Shown piece by piece: positions 8,151 through 56,719 of a DNA stretch of 64,000 nucleotides. The stretch is from a bacterium (lineage in GTDB: Bacteria; Babelota; Babeliae; Babelales; RVW-14). The notes beneath the pieces are model-generated. The model was not told the origin of the DNA. It saw only the letters and a program-made list of their open reading frames with translations, and did not search any database. Every line of letters begins with the position of its first letter. Within the stretch, counting starts at the first letter, position 1. The stretch lies in contig JBDRBF010000002.1 in NCBI GenBank assembly GCA_043822925.1, positions 14,562-78,561 of the forward strand. The letters run 5' to 3'. Position numbers and translations under genes: made by a program.

Positions 8151-8426
8151 TTATTCGTCTTCTGTGTCTGACATTTCGTCTGTGTCATCAGACATATCTT
8201 CTTCATCTGCCATTTCTTCTGTATCGTCTGATACTTTGCCGACGACTTCATCAGATTCATCAGATACTTTGTCTACTTCTTCAGTTTCTTCGCCCGTTGC
8301 TGACATTTCGTCTGTATCATCAGAAACTACGCCGATTTCTTCTTCTTCATTAGCCAGTACGATTGATGGGGTTACGCTGAAAACGAGAAAACCAGCAAGG
8401 GCAGCGATCAAAAGCTTTTTGTTCAT
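8151..8426 (-). CDS. Small acidic repeat protein with signal peptide
   Basis: Signal peptide MNKKLLIAALAGFLVFSVTPSIVLA, AAGGAG SD upstream, VSD(D/E)(T/S)(D/E)E(M/V) repeats, terminator downstream. Confidence 0.5.
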   Translation of the reverse strand: MNKKLLIAALAGFLVFSVTPSIVLANEEEEIGVVSDDTDEMSATGEETEEVDKVSDESDEVVGKVSDDTEEMADEEDMSDDTDEMSDTEDE

Positions 8427-8560: not shown

Positions 8561-8669
8561 GAGGCCATGGATTTTGCCACATTGCCCCATGGCCTCTTTG
8601 TGTTTGTGTTGCTAATTTATCTTGATTTCTAGAACTTGACCAACGCGCCTGCATGCATATTAGATTCGC
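8561..8669. repeat. Left copy of a ~105-bp direct duplication flanking the Y1-transposase cassette
   Basis: Hairpin GAGGCCATGG...CCATGGCCTC plus CTCTTTGTGTTTGTGTTGCTAATTTATCTTGATTT plus CTAGAACTTGACCAACGCGCCTGCATGCATAT. Matches 9501-9560 plus 9624-9666 almost exactly outside the hairpin. Confidence 0.8.
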
Positions 8670-8670: not shown

Positions 8671-8894
8671 CCATTATCCCGGGGTCTCGCAGAGCTCGTG
8701 CCCGGGCTACAAAAAGCACAAGGTTACACCTTGTTTATGGAGTTTTTATATTGCCAGGGCTTGTTGGGTGCCAATTTAAAAATTGGTTTTTATTGCAAAA
8801 GCGTTGATCTGTTAGCATATGTTGTATTCGTTCGGGCTTTGTGTTAGCTTTTGTTTTTGTTCAATAATTTTATATATTTTTTATTTGGTGGCTT

Positions 8895-9326
8895 ATGAGT
8901 GATACATATTCAAGCTTATATTTTCACTGTGTTTGGAGTACTCAAAATCGATTTCCATCTCTTACTTCACCATTTGATGTTAAAGCGTATGGATTTATTG
9001 GAAGCATGGTAAATCGTGAAGGCGGCAAAATTCTTGCTATTGGTGGGATGCCAGATCATGTACATCTTCTTTTTTCAATAAAACCGTCAGATTCGGTTGC
9101 GCGTATGATGCGTTATGTAAAAGGGGGATCATCAAAGTTGTTGAAAGATTCACATATAAATATGAAATATTTTGCATGGCAAAAAGGGTATGGGGTTTTT
9201 TCGGTAAGCAGGTCAAATATTGATGTGGTTGCTCGATATATTAAAAATCAGGAAATTCATCATAAAGAACGTTCTTCTGAATCTGAATTTGCCATGCTAT
9301 TAAAATTGCATGACATAAAAATCTAG
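8895..9326 (+). CDS. tnpA: Y1 (HUH) transposase, IS200-like / REP-associated tyrosine transposase-like
   Basis: YFHCVWSTQNR, HUH motif DHVHLL, catalytic Tyr context WQKGYG; 143 aa. Confidence 0.8.
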   Translation: MSDTYSSLYFHCVWSTQNRFPSLTSPFDVKAYGFIGSMVNREGGKILAIGGMPDHVHLLFSIKPSDSVARMMRYVKGGSSKLLKDSHINMKYFAWQKGYGVFSVSRSNIDVVARYIKNQEIHHKERSSESEFAMLLKLHDIKI

Positions 9327-9388: not shown

Positions 9389-9413
9389 ACAAGCCGTATG
9401 GCTTGTGTTTTTT
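9389..9413 (+). terminator. Rho-independent terminator of tnpA
   Basis: ACAAGCC-GTAT-GGCTTGT followed by GTTTTTT. Confidence 0.6.
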
Positions 9414-9500
9414 GTAGCCCGGGCACGAGAAGAGCTTTAGCTCTGCGAGACCCCGGGATTATAATCAACCCCCGCGACCTCGAATTTCCCATTAAATCAA

Positions 9501-9666
9501 AGAGGCCACGGTTTTGCCCCGCGGCCTCTTTGTGTTTGTGTTGCTAATTTATCTTGATTTGTCATCCCAGACTTCGCGCTCACCCTGAGCTTGTCGAAGG
9601 GGCTGGGATCTAGGTCAATTGTTCTAGAACTTGACCAACGCGCCTGCATGCATATCAGATTCGCGA
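9501..9666. repeat. Right copy of the ~105-bp direct duplication, interrupted by a palindromic element
   Basis: Same sequence as 8561-8669, but with 9561-9623 inserted between CTTGATTT and CTAGAAC. Includes the hairpin AGAGGCCACGG...CCGCGGCCTCT, which is the likely terminator of the porin gene. Confidence 0.8.
9561..9610 (+). repeat. Palindromic element with a nested GCTCACCCTGAGCTTGTCGAAG module
   Basis: GTCATCCCAGACTTCGCGCTCACCCTGAGCTTGTCGAAGGGGCTGGGATC, 14 nt after the porin stop codon. Confidence 0.8.
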
Positions 9667-25962: not shown

Positions 25963-27057
25963 TTAGCGTTGTTTTTGATCTAAAAAAATAGAAAATGGTT
26001 CGTTCTGAAATATAAATTTATAGGCTGCATGGCATAGGGGCATGTGTAGGTTGTCGCGTTCAATTAGTTCGCGCAGAGAGAGCAGGGTATTAAGCCCTTC
26101 GGGAAGCGTCTTAAAATTGAGCGATAAATTTTCTATAGATCGGTCTTGGGCGAGCAAGCGTCCAGCTTTGAGGTTTTTGCCGAGAGTCCCAGTGCAGCTT
26201 AAAATTAAATCGCCCAAGCCTGATAGCCCGTAGGCTGTTTGCGGGTCGCCACCGAGATGTTTGATCAAGTAAGCAATTTCACGCAGGCCCTGAGTTATTA
26301 AATAAGAAGCGGTATTTTCTTTATGTCCAGATCCGTAGGCGATGCCTATAATTAGCGCAAAAACATTTTTGATGGCGCCACATATTTGTGTGCCTATTGG
26401 GTCTTGTGACGGGAACGTCTTAAAATAATTATTATTAAGAAGCGTATCTAATTGGGTAATAAGTTTAGAATTTGTGCTTGCGATAGTTGCTGTTGTAAAT
26501 TGTCTGTCGGCCAGTTCTTTGGCGAAACTTGGGCCACCAAGTACGGCATAATTTATTGGTGCTTTTAATACGTCTTGAATTATTTGGGATGGGAGTAAGC
26601 GTGTTTTTTGTTCGATGCCCTTACTCAGGATTACCCAGGATGGGGCGCGCCCTTCGACAGGCTCCCAGGCTTCGCGTGAAGCTTCGCCGGGCACGGCAGG
26701 GTGAGTGCTCATGCTGAGTTTATCGAAGCATGAAGGGCAGGCCAGTCTGGGATGACGACATGTAGGGTCGGTTGCTAAAACTTGTTCAATAATTTGGCGT
26801 AAAAATTTGACGGGAATAGCTTCGAAAATTAAGCTTGCGCCGGTTATGGCTTCTTCGAGATTTGTTGTTGCGTTAATTTTTGGGCTCAGCGTAATATCAG
26901 GTAAATACTGGCTGTTTGTGTGTTGCTTGGTTATTTCGTAGGTAATTTCTGGTTCATGGCACCATAGGGTTACATGGTGGTCGTTGTGGGCCAGGAGCGT
27001 CGCGATAGCTGTTCCCCAAGCGCCTGCGCCAAGTATTGTTATTTTTTGTTCAGACAT
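25963..27057 (-). CDS. gpsA: NAD(P)H-dependent glycerol-3-phosphate dehydrogenase with a 42-codon repeat-derived insertion
   Basis: ITILGAGAWGTAIA Rossmann motif, SKGIE, GLGDLILSCTG. Residues 100-141 (CRHPRLACPSCFDKLSMSTHPAVPGEASREAWEPVEGRAPSW) are encoded by the element. Confidence 0.85.
   Translation of the reverse strand: MSEQKITILGAGAWGTAIATLLAHNDHHVTLWCHEPEITYEITKQHTNSQYLPDITLSPKINATTNLEEAITGASLIFEAIPVKFLRQIIEQVLATDPTCRHPRLACPSCFDKLSMSTHPAVPGEASREAWEPVEGRAPSWVILSKGIEQKTRLLPSQIIQDVLKAPINYAVLGGPSFAKELADRQFTTATIASTNSKLITQLDTLLNNNYFKTFPSQDPIGTQICGAIKNVFALIIGIAYGSGHKENTASYLITQGLREIAYLIKHLGGDPQTAYGLSGLGDLILSCTGTLGKNLKAGRLLAQDRSIENLSLNFKTLPEGLNTLLSLRELIERDNLHMPLCHAAYKFIFQNEPFSIFLDQKQR
26635..26760 (-). 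repeat. Composite palindromic element (three nested modules) inside gpsA
   Basis: Minus strand reads TGTCGTCATCCCAGACTGGCCTGCCC...GCTTCGATAAACTCAGCATGAGC...GTGCCCGGCGAAGCTTCACGCGAAGCCTGGG...CCATCCTGG. Length is 126 nt. Confidence 0.8.
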
Positions 27058-28987: not shown

Positions 28988-28996
28988 CGCTGACTT

Positions 28997-29055
28997 GTCA
29001 TCCTGGACTTGCCTGCCATTCGGAGCCACTTGGGCGTAGTAGAGATCCGGGATCC
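28997..29055 (+). repeat. Palindromic element just after the HAD gene stop
   Basis: GTCATCCTGGACTTGCCTGCCATTCGGAGCCACTTGGGCGTAGTAGAGATCCGGGATCC. Confidence 0.75.
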
Positions 29056-29087
29056 ATCCTGTTCTTAATATATTGTCTGTTTAATTT

Positions 29088-29114: not shown

Positions 29115-29190
29115 GAGTTTATGGGGCTGTTAAGAAATAAGATTTATATATTAAAAAACGCTCACCCTGAGCTTGTCGAAGGGTTCTCCG

Positions 29191-37859: not shown

Positions 37860-37909
37860 AGTGATCGCCCATTTCTAATCGAAAAATTGGTTTTGTAGGT
37901 GTTTGTTTT

Positions 37910-37933
37910 GTCATCCTGAACTTGTTTCAGGAT
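37910..37933 (+). repeat. Minimal palindromic element variant
   Basis: GTCATCCTGAACTTGTTTCAGGAT. Confidence 0.6.
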
Positions 37934-38085
37934 TTATTCATTAATCTCTTTTATGTACCTGTTAAATGTACCAGTTAGAAAATTGCTGTCAAAGGCGTTT
38001 TGTTTGACGAATGGTAGAGAGCTCGCTATAACTAGATAAGTTTTTAGGGTCTAAAAGGGTCTAAAACAAGGGAAAGGAGCCTGTT

Positions 38086-47019: not shown

Positions 47020-48498
47020 ATGACGTTAGTAAAAAACATGGCCTTATTGTTTTGTACGCTGAGCGCGTGCATATTTGGGGCTGCATTAAGTGGCGCTGAA
47101 AATATAATTAAAAAACCCTGTGGTCTTGTGTCTTTGGATAAAAAAGATAAATGCTTCGACAAGCTCAGCACGAGCGCGACGGGTGACGCAACACAAAAAG
47201 ATCTATCGTTTCAGGTAAGTGCAGGGGCTAGTTCTTATAAGCCGGTAAACATACAGGCTTTATGTGTTGGTCAAAATAAAGACCTTGAGGCGCTGGCTAA
47301 TATCGTGAAGTTTGATTTAGATTTTACGGATCAATTATTAGTAGATATTAAACGTATAGATAAAATCCCGAATGAAAAAAATGTTAAAGAGTTTGCAAAA
47401 TACAAAAAAACAATAGAAAAACTGTTTAATGACGAGACGTCTTTGTGTATGTATTTTAGGTTAGCTGTTCCTAAGCAGGACAAACTTAAGAAATTTGTGA
47501 ACATTACGATTAAAGATACGTCGTCTGATGAGTCTGTTTTCGATAGAACCTTTTCTTATGCAGATGCGTCTTTGATTTTTGATGCGCATTCTATTTCTCA
47601 AGCAATAATTCCAGTGCTGACGGGCCAAGATGGTATTTGTTTAAGTAGTTTTGCATTTTGCAAGCAGCTTTCTTCAAAAAAGAAGGTTATTTGCATTACT
47701 GATTATATGTGCAAGAAAGAAAAAATTATTGTTCCTCATTGTGGGATTAATGTTGCTCCTCGTTGGCACAGTCAGGCAGGATATCTTTTCTATTCACAAT
47801 TTTTGCGTGCGAGTTGTCAGCTTGTGTCCCTTAATATAAAAAATAAAACAGAAAAAATTATTTGTTCATATGATGGCTTAAATATGCAGCCATCATTTTC
47901 TCCTGATGGTATTCAGGTTGCGTTATGTATGTCGGGTGGGGGTGAGAACTCTGAACTTTATTTATATGATCAGCGGGTTTGCAAGCAACTTAAGAAGAGA
48001 GTTTTTAAGCAGATAACGAAAAATAAAGGTAATAACTCGTCACCGTGTTTGTTGCCTAACGGTGATATTGTTTTTTGTTCAGATTTTCAAACAGGAAGTC
48101 CCCAGTTATATTATTATCGTAAGTTAGATGGTCGGACCGTGCGATTATCCAGCGGTGTTGGGTATAGTGCTGCGCCGTCATATAGTGAAGCGAATAATGC
48201 GATAGCATATACGCGTCTTGTGAATAAAACATTTCAATTGTTTACGATGTCTTTTACTGAGCACGGTGTTGTTGAAAAGCAGTGTACATTTGGTTCAGGG
48301 GATAAGCTTGATGCTACGTGGTCTCCTTGCGGGCGGTACATAGCCTTTACTTATGATCATAAAAATGAAAAAACGAATAAGATGATCCCTCAAATAGGGG
48401 TACTTAACTGCCGTAGTGGGAATATTCGGGTTTTAACGCATAGTAAATTTCCTAAGAGTTTTCCTTGTTGGAGTGCAAATCCATATTTTCAACTTTAA
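47020..48498 (+). CDS. tolB: Tol-Pal system beta-propeller protein TolB
   Basis: Repeated SPDG/WSPCG propeller motifs. ATG 47020 follows GGAG. The N-terminus ends LFCTLSACIFG (lipobox-like). Confidence 0.8.
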   Translation: MTLVKNMALLFCTLSACIFGAALSGAENIIKKPCGLVSLDKKDKCFDKLSTSATGDATQKDLSFQVSAGASSYKPVNIQALCVGQNKDLEALANIVKFDLDFTDQLLVDIKRIDKIPNEKNVKEFAKYKKTIEKLFNDETSLCMYFRLAVPKQDKLKKFVNITIKDTSSDESVFDRTFSYADASLIFDAHSISQAIIPVLTGQDGICLSSFAFCKQLSSKKKVICITDYMCKKEKIIVPHCGINVAPRWHSQAGYLFYSQFLRASCQLVSLNIKNKTEKIICSYDGLNMQPSFSPDGIQVALCMSGGGENSELYLYDQRVCKQLKKRVFKQITKNKGNNSSPCLLPNGDIVFCSDFQTGSPQLYYYRKLDGRTVRLSSGVGYSAAPSYSEANNAIAYTRLVNKTFQLFTMSFTEHGVVEKQCTFGSGDKLDATWSPCGRYIAFTYDHKNEKTNKMIPQIGVLNCRSGNIRVLTHSKFPKSFPCWSANPYFQL

Positions 48499-53504: not shown

Positions 53505-53580
53505 GGGGCTATAGCTCAGATGGTAGAGCGCTTGAATGGCATTCAAGAGGTCACCGGTTCGATCCCGGTTAGCTCCACCA
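53505..53580 (+). tRNA. tRNA-Ala (anticodon GGC), CCA encoded
   Basis: GGGGCTA acceptor stem with G3:U70, anticodon loop ATGGCAT, GGTTCGATCCC T-arm, and terminal CCACCA. Confidence 0.92.
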
Positions 53581-54240: not shown

Positions 54241-54356
54241 GCGTTTAAGGCTATTTTTGAGTAGCTAAAACGCAAAAAATATTTTATAAAGTATGTACTG
54301 GTAAAAATCGAAAAACATTGATCAATTAAACAATTTTTTGTATTTCAGGAGCTTTC

Positions 54357-55520
54357 ATGTTGCATATACCCCTTTCAGGGATAAAAAAGATCGAAGAAGT
54401 AGCTGGAAGCAGTAATGAGTATGTTTCTTTATCTCAGGGGTCAATAAAAGTTGGCGGGATTCCCCAACAAATAAAAGATTATATTCAAGGTCTCATGGCT
54501 ACTGATAAAACTGATTATTATGGCAGCTGCTGGGGTCTGAAGCTTTTGCGAGAAAAATTGTCGACCGTTCTTTCTGCTCGTTACGGGCAAAATATTACAG
54601 CCGGTCAAATATTGCCGACACATGGTTGTATTGGTGGCCTAACTCTTTTGTATATGACGTTACTTGATGCGGGCGATGAAGTTATTATTCCAGAGCCTGC
54701 TTATCCTGCTTATACCACACTTGCAGGTGCTGCTCGTGCTAAACCTGTTTTTGTTTCGTGCGTAAAGGCGGCGAGTAAGTGTTCTCGTCTTGGCTCGGTT
54801 GAATGGGAATTTGATATCGAAAAAATAAAACAAGCGACGACGTCAAAAACGAAGATGATTATTTTCTCAAACCCCTGTAATCCATTAGGGCTTGTTGTTG
54901 GTAAAACTGATTTATTAGAGCTTGTTTCTTGGTGTGAAAAGCACGGGATTTATTTAGTTATAGACGAAGCTTATGGTGATTATGTTTTTGAGGGCGAATT
55001 TTATTCTAGTCTAGAATTTATAAATAAGTCCCAGTGGGTAATTTCGGCTCACACGTTTTCAAAGAATATGGCTTTAAGTGGTTGGCGCATTGGGTACTTA
55101 GTTGTGCCTGAAAAAATTATTGCTGCACTTGCGGGTATGCAAGATGCTCTTTTAAATTGCTTAAATAACACTGCTCAATATGCTGCTATGTTTGCGCTTG
55201 ATTATCCAGAAGTAACGCGTGAATTTGCGCAAAAACTTAAGCTAAATCGTGATTTGGCTATGCAATTATTACAGCCATTAGTAGATCAGAAAATTTTTAC
55301 ATTAGGCCGTAAGCCAGTTGGTGGTTTTTATTTGTTTATTAAAACAGAGCATGAAGACTCTATGGATCTGTGCATGAGTATTTTAAATCAGGCTAAAGTG
55401 GGACTTATTCCTGGACGATCGTTTGGTCAGGCTGGAGCATCGTTTTTGCGTTTGTGTTATGCTCGTGAAACAGATGTTTTACGCGAAGGTATTAATCGTA
55501 TTTTGGGCTATTTTTTATAA
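54357..55520 (+). CDS. Class I/II PLP-dependent aminotransferase (copy 1)
   Basis: PEPAYPAY and the PLP-lysine context FSKNMALSGWRIGY. Confidence 0.85.
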   Translation: MLHIPLSGIKKIEEVAGSSNEYVSLSQGSIKVGGIPQQIKDYIQGLMATDKTDYYGSCWGLKLLREKLSTVLSARYGQNITAGQILPTHGCIGGLTLLYMTLLDAGDEVIIPEPAYPAYTTLAGAARAKPVFVSCVKAASKCSRLGSVEWEFDIEKIKQATTSKTKMIIFSNPCNPLGLVVGKTDLLELVSWCEKHGIYLVIDEAYGDYVFEGEFYSSLEFINKSQWVISAHTFSKNMALSGWRIGYLVVPEKIIAALAGMQDALLNCLNNTAQYAAMFALDYPEVTREFAQKLKLNRDLAMQLLQPLVDQKIFTLGRKPVGGFYLFIKTEHEDSMDLCMSILNQAKVGLIPGRSFGQAGASFLRLCYARETDVLREGINRILGYFL

Positions 55521-55540
55521 TAAAATAAAGGGGTAAGCCC

Positions 55541-56698
55541 ATGTTGCACATGCCTATTTCGACGATCAAAAAGATAGAAGATATTGCAGGAAATAATCCT
55601 GATTATGTTTCTTTGTCTCAGGGATCAGTAAAATTGGGTGGTGTGCCTGAAGAAATACGTGAATATGTACGGCAACAGCTTTTGACTAACAAGACTGATT
55701 ACTATCAAAGTTGTTGGGGGCTCGAGTTATATCGAGAAAAAGTTTCCCAAGTACTGACTCAGAAGTATGGGCAAGAATTTAAAGTAAGCCAAATATTACC
55801 AACACACGGGTGTCAGGGCGGCATAACACTCTTATTTATGACATTACTTGATGCTGATTCAGAAATTATTATTCCAGAGCCTGCATATCCGGCGTATACG
55901 AATATCGCACGTGTTTCGCGTGGAAATATTGTGTATGTGTCTTGTTCTCAAGATACGAGCACGTTAAATATGGTTAATTGGGATTTAGACATAGAAAAGA
56001 TCAAACAGGCAACAACGTCTAAAACAAAAGTAATTTTGTTTTCTAATCCAAGTAATCCTATGGGTATCGTTATTGGTAAACAAAAATTATTAGAATTGGT
56101 TTCTTGGTGTGAAAAGCACGGGATCTATTTAATTGTTGATGAAGCGTATCGAGAATACGTTTTTGATGGTGATTGTTATTCGAGTCTTGAGCTTGTGAAT
56201 AAATCTAAATTTGTTGTTTCTGTGCATACGTTTTCAAAAAGTATGGCTATGATTGGTTGGCGCGTTGGGTATATTGTTGCTCATGAAAAACTTATTACTA
56301 TGCTTGCTGGTATGCAAGATGCGCTTATGAATTGTCTTAATAATGCGTCACAATATGCAGCGCTTTATGCGCTTGATCATCCAGAGTTTACTCAAAAATT
56401 TTTTCAGATAATTAAAAATAATAGAGATTTGGCTATGCATGAGTTGCAGCCGCTCGTTGACCGGGGGATTTTGGCTTTTAAAAAACCAAATGGTGGGATT
56501 TTCTTGTTTCTTAAGACAAATCAGACTGATACAGCAGATTTGTGTATGGATATTTTGAATAAAGCTAAAGTGGGATTAATTCCAGGACGAGCATTTGGCC
56601 CAAGTGGTGCAGCGTCTATTCGTCTTTGTTATTCACGCGAGACAGATGTTTTGTATGAAGGCATAAGCCGTATTCTTGGTTATTTTGCACAAAAATAA
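55541..56698 (+). CDS. Class I/II PLP-dependent aminotransferase (copy 2, tandem paralog)
   Basis: PEPAYPAY and FSKSMAMIGWRVGY. Collinear with copy 1 along the full length. Confidence 0.85.
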   Translation: MLHMPISTIKKIEDIAGNNPDYVSLSQGSVKLGGVPEEIREYVRQQLLTNKTDYYQSCWGLELYREKVSQVLTQKYGQEFKVSQILPTHGCQGGITLLFMTLLDADSEIIIPEPAYPAYTNIARVSRGNIVYVSCSQDTSTLNMVNWDLDIEKIKQATTSKTKVILFSNPSNPMGIVIGKQKLLELVSWCEKHGIYLIVDEAYREYVFDGDCYSSLELVNKSKFVVSVHTFSKSMAMIGWRVGYIVAHEKLITMLAGMQDALMNCLNNASQYAALYALDHPEFTQKFFQIIKNNRDLAMHELQPLVDRGILAFKKPNGGIFLFLKTNQTDTADLCMDILNKAKVGLIPGRAFGPSGAASIRLCYSRETDVLYEGISRILGYFAQK

Positions 56699-56719
56699 AA
56701 ATTATAGGGAGATCGAAAA

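Follow-up and report, generated by a model that had tools for sequence, protein, structure and literature searches.

The gpsA gene in the 64-kb stretch of DNA analyzed here (the window) encodes an NAD(P)H-dependent glycerol-3-phosphate dehydrogenase with about 40 more residues than its nearest homologs, which raises the questions of where the additional codons came from and whether the enzyme tolerates them. The gene (25963..27057, minus strand) is an intact open reading frame of 364 amino acids, insert included, and was identified by its matches to Pfam NAD_Gly3P_dh_N (E = 8.7e-46, in two stretches) and NAD_Gly3P_dh_C. gpsA is an essential gene. The host of the insert is an AT-rich Dependentiae bacterium.

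An In-Frame Insert in gpsA

As first delimited, the insert spans 26635..26760 on the minus strand (126 nt, 42 codons). A reading made earlier from the sequence only had assigned residues 100-141 of GpsA to this segment, and the mapping was found to be exact: residues C100-W141 (CRHPRLACPSCFDKLSMSTHPAVPGEASREAWEPVEGRAPSW) correspond to 26760..26635, and the strings quoted in that reading are present. The insert encodes the peptide CFDKLSMSTHPAVPGEASR and is bordered in gpsA by ...GACCCTACA on one side and by (GCCCCATCC)TGGGTAATCC on the other. It is absent from all 67 aligned GpsA homologs, as the sequence-only reading had anticipated. The nearest of these, 322-324 amino acids long, are distant relatives with an empty site (~60% identity over the alignment, 55% by BLASTP), in agreement with the further claim that the protein is about 40 residues longer than usual, with the excess just before SKGIE. 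GpsA chains in the PDB align to residues 5-92 and 142-352 only. The GC content of the insert was determined to be 63.5%, compared with 42.4% for the remainder of gpsA, and the insert is the longest GC-rich island of the window.

The left edge of the insert is firm. The right edge is ambiguous because the CCATCCTGG terminus coincides in part with conserved codons of the native gene (A-P-S-W-V-I) and has only a loose resemblance to the canonical right arm. The candidate boundaries are 26635, 26638, and 26647, and the insert accordingly comprises 114-126 nt, or 38-42 additional codons.

Being in frame and free of stop codons, the insert should be translated. The left terminus is read as C-R-H-P in gpsA and as V-V-I-P in holB, as had been noted earlier, and the 3' end of tmk reads a related hairpin as C-H-P; the broader proposal that more than one frame of the element is open does not extend to the 126-nt gpsA copy, where the used frame is open and five of the six frames contain stops. 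An intein or a programmed bypass was rejected: the gene shows neither an intein domain nor a bypass signal, and its frame is simply open. A native lineage-specific loop was also rejected, since the modules of the insert recur in unrelated loci.

It is very improbable that the insert is an assembly artifact in which reads from repeats were misjoined into gpsA. The gene does come from one contig of one MAG, that assembly is the only recorded source of the exact protein, with nothing further from an exact-protein look-up, and other assemblies of the same organism break up around the repeats. No second assembly spanning the gpsA junctions was found, the look-up with uppS leading to a 1059-bp contig that ends before the insert, and a scan of JGI metagenomes with the native sequence 5' of the insert returned 0 matches, and hence neither an empty-site allele nor an independent junction. 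However, the insert is exactly divisible by three in length, its used frame is free of the stops found in the others, the composite is unique and does not duplicate any other locus of the window, and the holB and GIY-YIG repeats described below recur with 99.4% identity in an independent assembly from ENA.

Predicted Effect on the Protein

The AF2 model of GpsA has a mean pLDDT of 91.7, with values above 95 in the core, and superposes on the bacterial GpsA structures 3k96 and 1z82 with target-normalized TM scores of 0.93-0.94. The insert region has a pLDDT of 48-71, is modeled without secondary structure, and lies between helix 83-96 and strand 140-143. Structure prediction, which had been proposed as a check on the earlier claims, is consistent with them: the insert is predicted to form a disordered loop of ~40 residues on an intact GpsA core. 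In the model, the beta strand that bears the catalytic S-K-G motif at its C-terminal end would have this loop at its N-terminal end. From the topology of the Rossmann fold, the loop would occupy a surface position on the side of the sheet that faces away from the NAD/substrate cleft, and GpsA should therefore still work. The insert-bearing GpsA is presumably expressed and active, and the insert, taken alone, is probably neutral baggage.

If gpsA had instead been inactivated, it would be a recent pseudogene or would be redundant with another gpsA elsewhere in the genome, and we consider either very unlikely. The insert does split the Pfam N-terminal domain and lies ~5 residues before the catalytic S-K-G motif. 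On the other hand, the open reading frame is full-length and in frame, and all 23 of the columns that are invariant across 68 homologs are kept. The predicted core is of high confidence, with the insert modeled as an extruded loop, and the Dependentiae homologs look like single ordinary gpsA genes. Furthermore, the modules of the insert have diverged from their relatives (72-92% identity), yet the used frame has stayed open even though the other five have stops.

Architecture of the Composite

The gpsA composite is a nest in which a split CGTC-REP/SRM hairpin surrounds an inverted dimer of a module (B), and one B copy is in turn split by a 33-nt module (C). Three modules side by side had been described previously; at least four were found, and they are nested rather than adjacent. 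All parts are given here on the minus strand. The head and left stem arm, TGT-CGTC-ATCCCAGA-C (26745..26760), are the same as the heads at 20698 and 21137. Four matches to TGTCGTCATCCCAGAC at two or fewer mismatches are found in the window (19809, 20698, 21122, and 26745), compared with 0 in 100 shuffles, and the left terminus proposed earlier is thereby supported; the right one is doubtful, as it overlaps native codons. The linker TGGCCTG (26738..26744) contains part of a motif, TKGCCTGYC, that also follows the head in the holB and 28997 copies (a pair of 31 nt, 84% identical).

Module B in the forward orientation, CCCTTC[ATGCTTC]GATAAACTCAGCATGAGC (26707..26737), is a small hairpin repeat whose head is CTTCGAYAA. 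The segment GCTTCGATAAACTCAGCATGAGC is located at 26707-26729 and has a copy with three mismatches at 47153, and further copies of module B are present at 61310, 29180 (minus), and 9598 (minus), as well as in two Aquimarina loci. The reverse copy of module B consists of a left part, ACTCACCCTG (26697..26706), and a right part, AGCCTGTCGAAGGG (26650..26663), with module C, CCGTGCCCGGCGAAGCTTCACGCGAAGCCTGGG (33 nt, 26664..26696), nested between them. The segment GTGCCCGGCGAAGCTTCACGCGAAGCCTGGG at 26664-26694 has an inverted copy (85% identical) at 20607-20639. When module C is taken out, the joining of 26650-26663 to 26697-26707 restores module B, with 23 of 25 positions identical to 9577-9601 and 29159-29183.

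The final stretch, CGCGCC followed by CCATCCTGG (26635..26649), may be a degenerate SRM right arm or may represent the native A-P-S-W codons. GpsA orthologs carry x-A-x-W at this position, the stretch resembles ATCTGGGATCC only with indels, and the right-arm candidate ATC[C]TGGG[TA]ATCC overlaps native codons. The gpsA copy does not form the canonical CGTC-REP hairpin, as its intact part is limited to the head and left arm and ~100 nt intervene before the right arm; the whole composite folds only marginally better than shuffles (z -1.65). A second copy of the same composite was found neither in the window nor in the JGI metagenomes (SRM-head...module-B pattern, 0 matches). An Rfam search of 26400-27000 gave no match, a protein search with the 42-residue insert peptide gave no candidates, and literature searches with the module sequences and their peptides found nothing.

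Related Repeats in the Window

Intact relatives of the outer hairpin are found ~6 kb from the gpsA insert, where a perfect 31-nt inverted repeat (100% complementary) of intact hairpins brackets the gene for a single-domain, Ssn-like GIY-YIG nuclease (20764..21069, plus strand, 101 amino acids). The upstream hairpin (20698..20733, plus) has a CGTC tag, an 8-bp stem, a 5-nt loop, and a CCA tail, with a dG of -7.2 kcal/mol and a z score of -2.7. The downstream element (21073..21137, minus), inverted relative to that at 20698, combines an intact SRM hairpin (21107-21137) with a C-like module (21073-21106). Another intact hairpin (37906..37935, plus; z -4.2) has a different stem, ATCCTGAA/TTCAGGAT, and is of the type that flanks GIY-YIG homologs in loci L027 and L030.

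In other copies the loop is filled. Module C occupies the loop of an intergenic SRM at 20593..20661 (plus), and a 39-nt inner module occupies that of the SRM in holB (19809..19880, plus), which is read in frame as SVVIPDLPVRHSSTGATAGIWDPS. The holB repeat is absent from the nearest HolB homologs in the alignment. An intergenic SRM variant with the stem ATCCTGGA also contains an inner module (28993..29056, plus); its outer stem is predicted to pair, and the whole fold is no more stable than that of shuffles (z +0.47). A solitary module B in reverse orientation (29159..29183, plus) is likewise intergenic. In a 99.4%-identical strain (L023), one SRM loop contains an inner module, and the corresponding loop of the window is empty. 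At 9559..9621 (plus; z -3.3), an SRM with reverse module B in its loop forms a 63-nt insertion relative to a duplicated empty site at 8626-8630, such that one copy of a 90-nt duplication contains the SRM+B unit and the other copy does not. TT is found at both junctions of this filled/empty pair, by 2-bp duplication or by chance, and only the 8-bp stem arms are inverted, in comparison with the 15-30 bp TIR and the TSD of a MITE.

The number of repeats inside coding sequences within the 64 kb is at least three for SRM-bearing copies (gpsA, holB, and the 3' end of tmk) plus one for module B. In tmk, an SRM-like hairpin (19598..19622, plus) supplies the last codons, right before the stop (...ACHPTWG*), and in a TolB-like open reading frame (47020-48498) module B (47151..47175, plus) is read as CFDKLSTS. 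The CGTC strand is the sense strand in each of the three intragenic copies that bear an SRM. Termini and modules recur in the window much more often than chance predicts, and the heptamer GTCATCC has 13 occurrences, compared with 4.7 expected. Across 13 hairpins the stem pairing is 100%, with compensatory changes in 5 of 8 pairs. The tag is TGT-CGTC-AT in the gpsA, 20698, and 21137 copies, and TGTC in those at holB, 9559, 28997, and 37910.

Comparison with Known Repeat Families

CGTC-tagged REPs, which include dRS3 of Neisseria and RPE-4 and RPE-6 of Rickettsia conorii, are defined by an unpaired 5' CGTC (or TGTC/CCTC), an 8-9 bp stem that starts with A-T and T-A pairs, a loop of 4-5 nt, and a CCA tail (Di Nocera, De Gregorio & Rocco 2013, PMC3733652). 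The 5' tag is present in the gpsA and other window copies, and the bare copies at 20698, 21137, and 37910 also have the stem, loop, and tail (ATCCCAGA / CTTGA / TCTGGGAT / CCA). As in that study, the repeats are scattered, mostly intergenic, and sometimes in frame in known genes; clusters of CGTC-tagged REPs were found there to encode up to 43-82 amino acids (PMC3733652). In contrast, the Dependentiae are outside the five phyla of that study, and the gpsA hairpin is split by ~100 nt with a degenerate right arm.

A second resemblance is to the Ssn-related motifs (SRM/NTS) and their Ssn enzymes, single-domain GIY-YIG nucleases that act on ssDNA (Chenal et al. 2025, PMC11893778). The bare copies of the window parallel the published NTS layout, CGTCATTCCCGCGMAVGCGGGAATCYRG (PMC11893778). 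The order SRM-ssn-SRM, the inverted hairpins on both sides, the GIY-YIG-only protein of ~100 amino acids, the CGTCAT head, and the ATCC tail are all shared, the 101-residue gene being comparable to the single-domain Ssn of ~94 amino acids with inverted hairpins at its 5' and 3' sides. The published SRM pattern, HGTCWYN(0-2)YYVSBRHN(0-5)WNVSBRGN(0-2)RNCYNB, has 0 matches in the window, both strands considered; its allowed letters do not cover the stems CCCAGA and CCTGAA. The location of the copies also differs: only 2% of the NTS of N. meningitidis 8013 are inside genes (PMC11893778), whereas the window holds the intragenic copies enumerated above.

The RPE are palindromic repeats found in frame in housekeeping genes of host-dependent bacteria (Ogata et al. 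2000/2002, as cited in PMC3733652). They are tolerated as surplus surface peptides that the orthologs lack, and the gpsA insert is likewise in frame, free of stops, absent from orthologs, and located in an otherwise intact gene. The gpsA element differs from the RPE in being GC-rich in an AT-rich genome and in consisting of several short nested modules rather than one unit of 100-150 nt. Inverted REP dimers (here B forward and reverse), mosaics, and a nuclease gene amid its own repeats are also features of REPIN/RAYT systems and BIMEs (Bertels & Rainey 2011, PMC3116915; Nunvar 2010, PMC2817692). However, the window has neither GTAG-tagged REPs nor a RAYT gene flanked by them; the flanked gene encodes a GIY-YIG nuclease and not a Y1 transposase.

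With considerable confidence, we interpret the gpsA segment as selfish repetitive DNA whose insertion in frame has been tolerated, with a CGTC-tagged REP/SRM as its outer unit. That unit would have the SRM form of CGTC, an 8-bp stem starting with AT, a 5-nt loop, and a CCA tail, and in gpsA the other palindromic modules would sit where intact copies hold the loop. Most likely, the composite was built at another site and then copied to gpsA as a single unit; had it grown step by step within the gene, every step would have had to leave the frame open.

It could be asked whether the loop has since been co-opted, either through its peptide or with the intragenic hairpin serving as a site for Ssn or for regulation. 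An essential gene has retained the insertion, and the three SRM-bearing intragenic copies share the same orientation with respect to transcription, with CGTC on the sense strand. NTS repeats that surround genes in Neisseria have a modulating effect on transformation (PMC11893778). Nevertheless, such a function is improbable, since the loop is predicted to be disordered, no homolog has it, Rfam holds no match, and the same modules occur in unrelated proteins and in intergenic DNA.

Candidate Agents of Repeat Mobility

As to the agent that moves these selfish repeats, we infer, tentatively, that they may spread via single-stranded DNA intermediates cut by the neighboring Ssn-type GIY-YIG nuclease. 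The protein matches only Pfam GIY-YIG (residues 4-77), with no NCBIfam family above its cut-off and no relative in the PDB. It has 3272 homologs, and among those listed most are on very short contigs. Hairpins of the same type flank GIY-YIG homologs in four other genomes (L026-L030), the upstream copy in L029 being degenerate. The demonstrated activity of Ssn itself is site-specific cleavage of ssDNA, not transposition (PMC11893778).

A somewhat less probable arrangement is that the repeats are moved by the IS200/IS605-type Y1 transposase encoded at 8895-9326, as RAYTs probably do for REPINs, or by replication slippage or gene conversion without a dedicated enzyme. Y1 enzymes are proven transposases of ssDNA hairpins, while Ssn has only been shown to cut (PMC11893778). 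The Y1 gene is flanked by inverted repeats of ~50 nt that share CGTGCCCGG with module C, and the loop difference in the 99.4%-identical strain could reflect gene conversion with the holB copy, at a distance of 1.3 kb, as the donor. However, these flanking repeats are unrelated to the SRM, and the protein scores as an IS200 TnpA (82.5 bits), its RAYT score being below the cut-off (31 versus 80 bits). Moreover, it is the GIY-YIG gene that the SRM flanks, both here and in the four other genomes.

It is also conceivable, though doubtful, that the SRM hairpins of this Dependentiae lineage are actively mobile with their loops acting as landing pads for other palindromic modules, and that nested composites are copied by a GIY-YIG-dependent single-strand mechanism into new sites, essential genes included. 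If this were true, Ssn/SRM would constitute a new, GIY-YIG-driven class of bacterial transposable element and would answer the question raised in 2013 about the enzyme of the CGTC-REPs.

In-frame palindromic insertion is known from Rickettsia; the Dependentiae case and the link to CGTC-REP/Ssn are new. The former extends insertion of the Rickettsia type to a candidate phylum, and the latter ties it to a hairpin family whose nuclease was characterized only in 2025. The window also offers natural experiments, namely the filled/empty duplication, the loop difference between strains, and the restoration of module B upon removal of module C, that should be useful for studies of Ssn/SRM mobility and of the origin of protein loops.

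The terminus was also used to scan a genome collection that does not include the source MAG. There were 22 single matches, compared with ~17 estimated by chance, and a phmmer search of the fetched loci located neither a GIY-YIG nor a Y1 gene. Approximately 9 of the 22 matches are real hairpins in other phyla.

Results and Discussion

The minus-strand open reading frame at 25963..27057 (364 aa) was identified as gpsA by Pfam and PDB alignment. Its product contains NAD_Gly3P_dh_N (E = 8.7e-46, in two separate stretches) and NAD_Gly3P_dh_C and is a bona fide GpsA. The PDB GpsA chains cover residues 5-92 and 142-352, and nothing else. The sequence-only reading had placed a composite element at residues C100-W141; these correspond exactly to 26760..26635, and all of the strings quoted for the element are present. 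Alignments of 15 and 68 sequences bear out an insertion of about 38-42 residues that is unique to this protein and absent from every other aligned GpsA, located after the helix that ends in ...IIEQV and before the strand WVILSKGIE. The GC content of the insert is 63.5%, compared with 42.4% for the remainder of gpsA, and the insert is the longest GC-rich island within the 64-kb window. Two other GC-rich islands are the genes for tRNA-Met (CAT; 2193-2269) and tRNA-Ala (GGC; 53505-53580), not repeat elements.

In a search of 5.8 billion proteins, an identical GpsA was found once, on a 98.8-kb contig of an NCBI MAG, and all other relatives were of ordinary length. The closest are 322-324 aa with ~60% identity across the aligned region (55% by BLASTP); the named matches are from Babeliales, Dependentiae or TM6. 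Neither a second assembly spanning the gpsA junctions nor a close relative with an empty gpsA site was found; that the insert was created during assembly is unlikely. The protein retains 23 of the 23 invariant columns of the 68-sequence alignment, and it is likewise unlikely that gpsA with its insert is a pseudogene.

The structure of GpsA was predicted with AlphaFold2 using the 68-sequence alignment. The mean pLDDT of the model is 91.7, with values above 95 in the core on either side of the insert. Residues ~100-139 have pLDDT values of 48-71 and no secondary structure, and they connect helix 83-96 to strand 140-143. As the check proposed with the original claim, this prediction yields a disordered loop on a core that superposes on the known GpsA structures from Coxiella and Thermotoga (target-normalised TM 0.93-0.94). 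The loop leads into the N-terminal end of a strand, and the catalytic S-K-G stands at the other, C-terminal end of that strand. Given this point of entry and the Rossmann-fold topology, the loop would be expected to point away from the cofactor cleft. Recruitment of the insert for a function of its own is unlikely.

Anatomy of the Insert

On the sense strand, the insert begins with the head and left arm of an Ssn-related motif (SRM) hairpin (positions 1-16), followed by the linker TGGCCTG (17-23), which the holB and 28997 copies also have behind the head. Next are a forward copy of the small palindromic repeat B (24-54), the left part of a reverse copy of B (54-64), the 33-nt palindromic repeat C (65-97), the right part of the reverse copy of B (98-111), and finally CGCGCC plus CCATCCTGG (112-126). 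Relatives of the GCTTCGATAAACTCAGCATGAGC module lie at 47153, 61309, 9577, and 29159, and those of the GTGCCCGGCG...CCTGGG module at 20607 and 21073. Removal of module C in silico joins CACTCACCCTG to AGCCTGTCGAAGGG, and the product agrees with the solitary copies of B (9577-9601 and 29159-29183) in 23 of 25 positions. Because B is restored in this way, module C is nested in B, and the two copies of B make up an inverted dimer standing after the SRM head and left arm, at the loop position of intact copies.

Two termini had been proposed for the element. The left terminus holds; the 16-nt sequence TGTCGTCATCCCAGAC has four copies in the window at no more than two mismatches, compared with none in 100 shuffles. 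The right terminus is uncertain, for it overlaps GCC CCA TCC TGG GTA ATC, which encodes A-P-S-W-V-I. Of these, W, V, and I/L belong to the conserved native sequence of GpsA (orthologs have x-A-x before the W), and these bases resemble the SRM right arm solely when indels are allowed. Since they may be either native codons or a loose right arm, the insert could be 114, 123, or 126 nt long, and each of these lengths keeps the frame. Folding of the entire composite is only marginally better than that of shuffled sequences (z = -1.65), which fits a decayed copy.

It had also been suggested that more than one frame of the element is open. This is true of the common terminus, which gpsA reads as C-R-H-P and holB as V-V-I-P. 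It does not extend to the 126-nt gpsA copy, where stops occur in five of the six frames and the sole open frame is the one in use; that frame stays open in ~35% of composition-matched shuffles. Such a pattern would be expected if disruptive insertions are filtered out, and it gives no evidence of design.

SRM Hairpins and the GIY-YIG Gene

The 101-residue open reading frame at 20764-21069, with GIY-YIG as its sole domain, lies between bare SRM hairpins at 20698-20733 (upstream) and 21107-21137 (downstream, inverted), which form a perfect 31-nt inverted repeat. The bare motif is TGT-CGTC-ATCCCAGA-CTTGA-TCTGGGAT-CCA, with a predicted 8-bp hairpin. All four homologs fetched from other genomes (67-71% identical) are bordered by hairpins of the form GTCATCC-stem-ACTTGnT-stem'-GGATCC, the upstream copy at one of these loci (L029) being degenerate. 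The stem sequence varies from locus to locus. Among 13 hairpins, the stem pairing is 100%, with compensatory changes in 5 of 8 pairs versus 0 of 500 shuffles; the hairpins were hand-picked, and the result is thus supportive, not unbiased. About 12 SRM heads are found in the window. The CGTC strand is the plus strand for nine and the minus strand for three, and the GC skew is positive throughout; a bias to one replication strand is possible, 12 heads being too few to judge.

CGTC-tagged REPs, to which Neisseria dRS3 and Rickettsia RPE-4 and RPE-6 belong, have a CGTC or TGTC tag, a stem of 8-9 bp starting A-T, T-A, a loop of 4-5 nt, and a CCA tail; members of the family occur in frame within genes, with a dedicated enzyme said to be lacking in 2013 (PMC3733652). 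The bare hairpins of the window fit this definition point by point. The single-domain GIY-YIG nuclease Ssn binds its flanking hairpin (NTS, CGTCATTCCCGCGMAVGCGGGAATCYRG) as ssDNA and cuts a few nucleotides upstream of it; Chenal et al. (2025) noted the likeness to insertion sequences, with mobility not demonstrated (PMC11893778). Their SRM-ssn-SRM layout is the hairpin-GIY-YIG-hairpin layout found here. The published degenerate SRM pattern (PMC11893778) gave 0 matches in the window, and the hairpins are thus a variant that it does not capture.

Other Copies and Module Movement

In holB, an SRM with an inner module (72 nt, 19809-19880) is in frame and adds 24 residues, SVVIPDLPVRHSSTGATAGIWDPS, that the nearest HolB homologs lack. 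An SRM-like hairpin supplies the last ~6 codons of tmk and ends just before the stop (19598-19622). Module B is also in frame, read as CFDKLSTS, in a TolB-like open reading frame (PD40 repeat, 47020-48498), just after a signal-peptide-like N-terminus; an SRM-like head lies just upstream (~47004, minus strand).

The modules appear to move, on three grounds: a 63-nt SRM+B unit that is present or absent, a difference in loop content between assemblies, and the interruption of B by C in gpsA. The 63-nt unit, with TT at both junctions, is the clean difference between the copies of a ~90-nt direct duplication (8582-8669 and 9514-9664). In an independent assembly (L023, ENA ERZ27247128 k141_898695) that is 99.4% identical to 19813-21137, a holB-type inner module (~39 nt) occupies the loop of the SRM that lies downstream of the GIY-YIG gene; in the window this loop is empty. 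The difference may stem from a nested insertion or a loss, making it a strain-level polymorphism, or from gene conversion by the inverted holB copy 1.3 kb away.

The same direct repeats enclose an IS200/IS605-type Y1 transposase gene (8895-9326, Pfam Y1_Tnp) as a unit. With NCBIfam models the gene reaches 82.5 bits for IS200 TnpA but only 31 bits for RAYT, below the cut-off of 80, and it is bordered by ~50-nt inverted repeats (8673-8722 and 9402-9462) unrelated to the SRM. The exact protein is also encoded on a 922-bp Logan contig (SRR10605391).

The best-supported reading, which we consider quite probable, is that the gpsA segment is a tolerated, translated, selfish insertion. The repeats may have spread via the Ssn-like GIY-YIG nuclease, a natural candidate for moving them because the same hairpin borders its gene here and in relatives; the Y1 transposase is a rival candidate. 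In-frame palindromic repeats in housekeeping genes (Rickettsia RPEs, intragenic GTAG and CGTC REPs) are already known, as is, since 2025, the hairpin-nuclease pairing. What is new is the host phylum, an SRM variant missed by the published pattern, and a clearly resolved nested composite that codes for ~40 residues of an essential enzyme.

The SRM or variants of it also occur at loci of other genomes (L002, L004/L007, L006, L008, L009, L013, L014, L017, and L022), which suggests that the repeat system has spread horizontally.

Genomes of Aquimarina and Patescibacteria have the SRM hairpin TGTYGTCATCCCAGACTTGATCTGGGATCC without any change. Sphingomonas, Rhodospirillaceae, Longimonas, and Balneolaceae have near-identical versions of it, most of which differ once in the stem (...GATCCGGGATCC). 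The right arm is more diverged in Syntrophales, and a Coxiellaceae MAG has half-sites in a tandem array. Module B (CTTCGACAAGCTCAG) is present in both Aquimarina loci and adjoins the SRM in L014.

Other repeats in the window include two tandem paralogous ~1.18-kb copies at 54356-56701 (72-75% identical; repeat families D1-D4) and a near-perfect 25+25 nt palindrome at 60339-60388 (96% complementary, no spacer) whose sequence shows no relation to the SRM family. A small secreted-looking open reading frame with acidic SDDTDEM-type repeats (8151-8426, minus strand) is covered by a 39-nt repeat family (D5).
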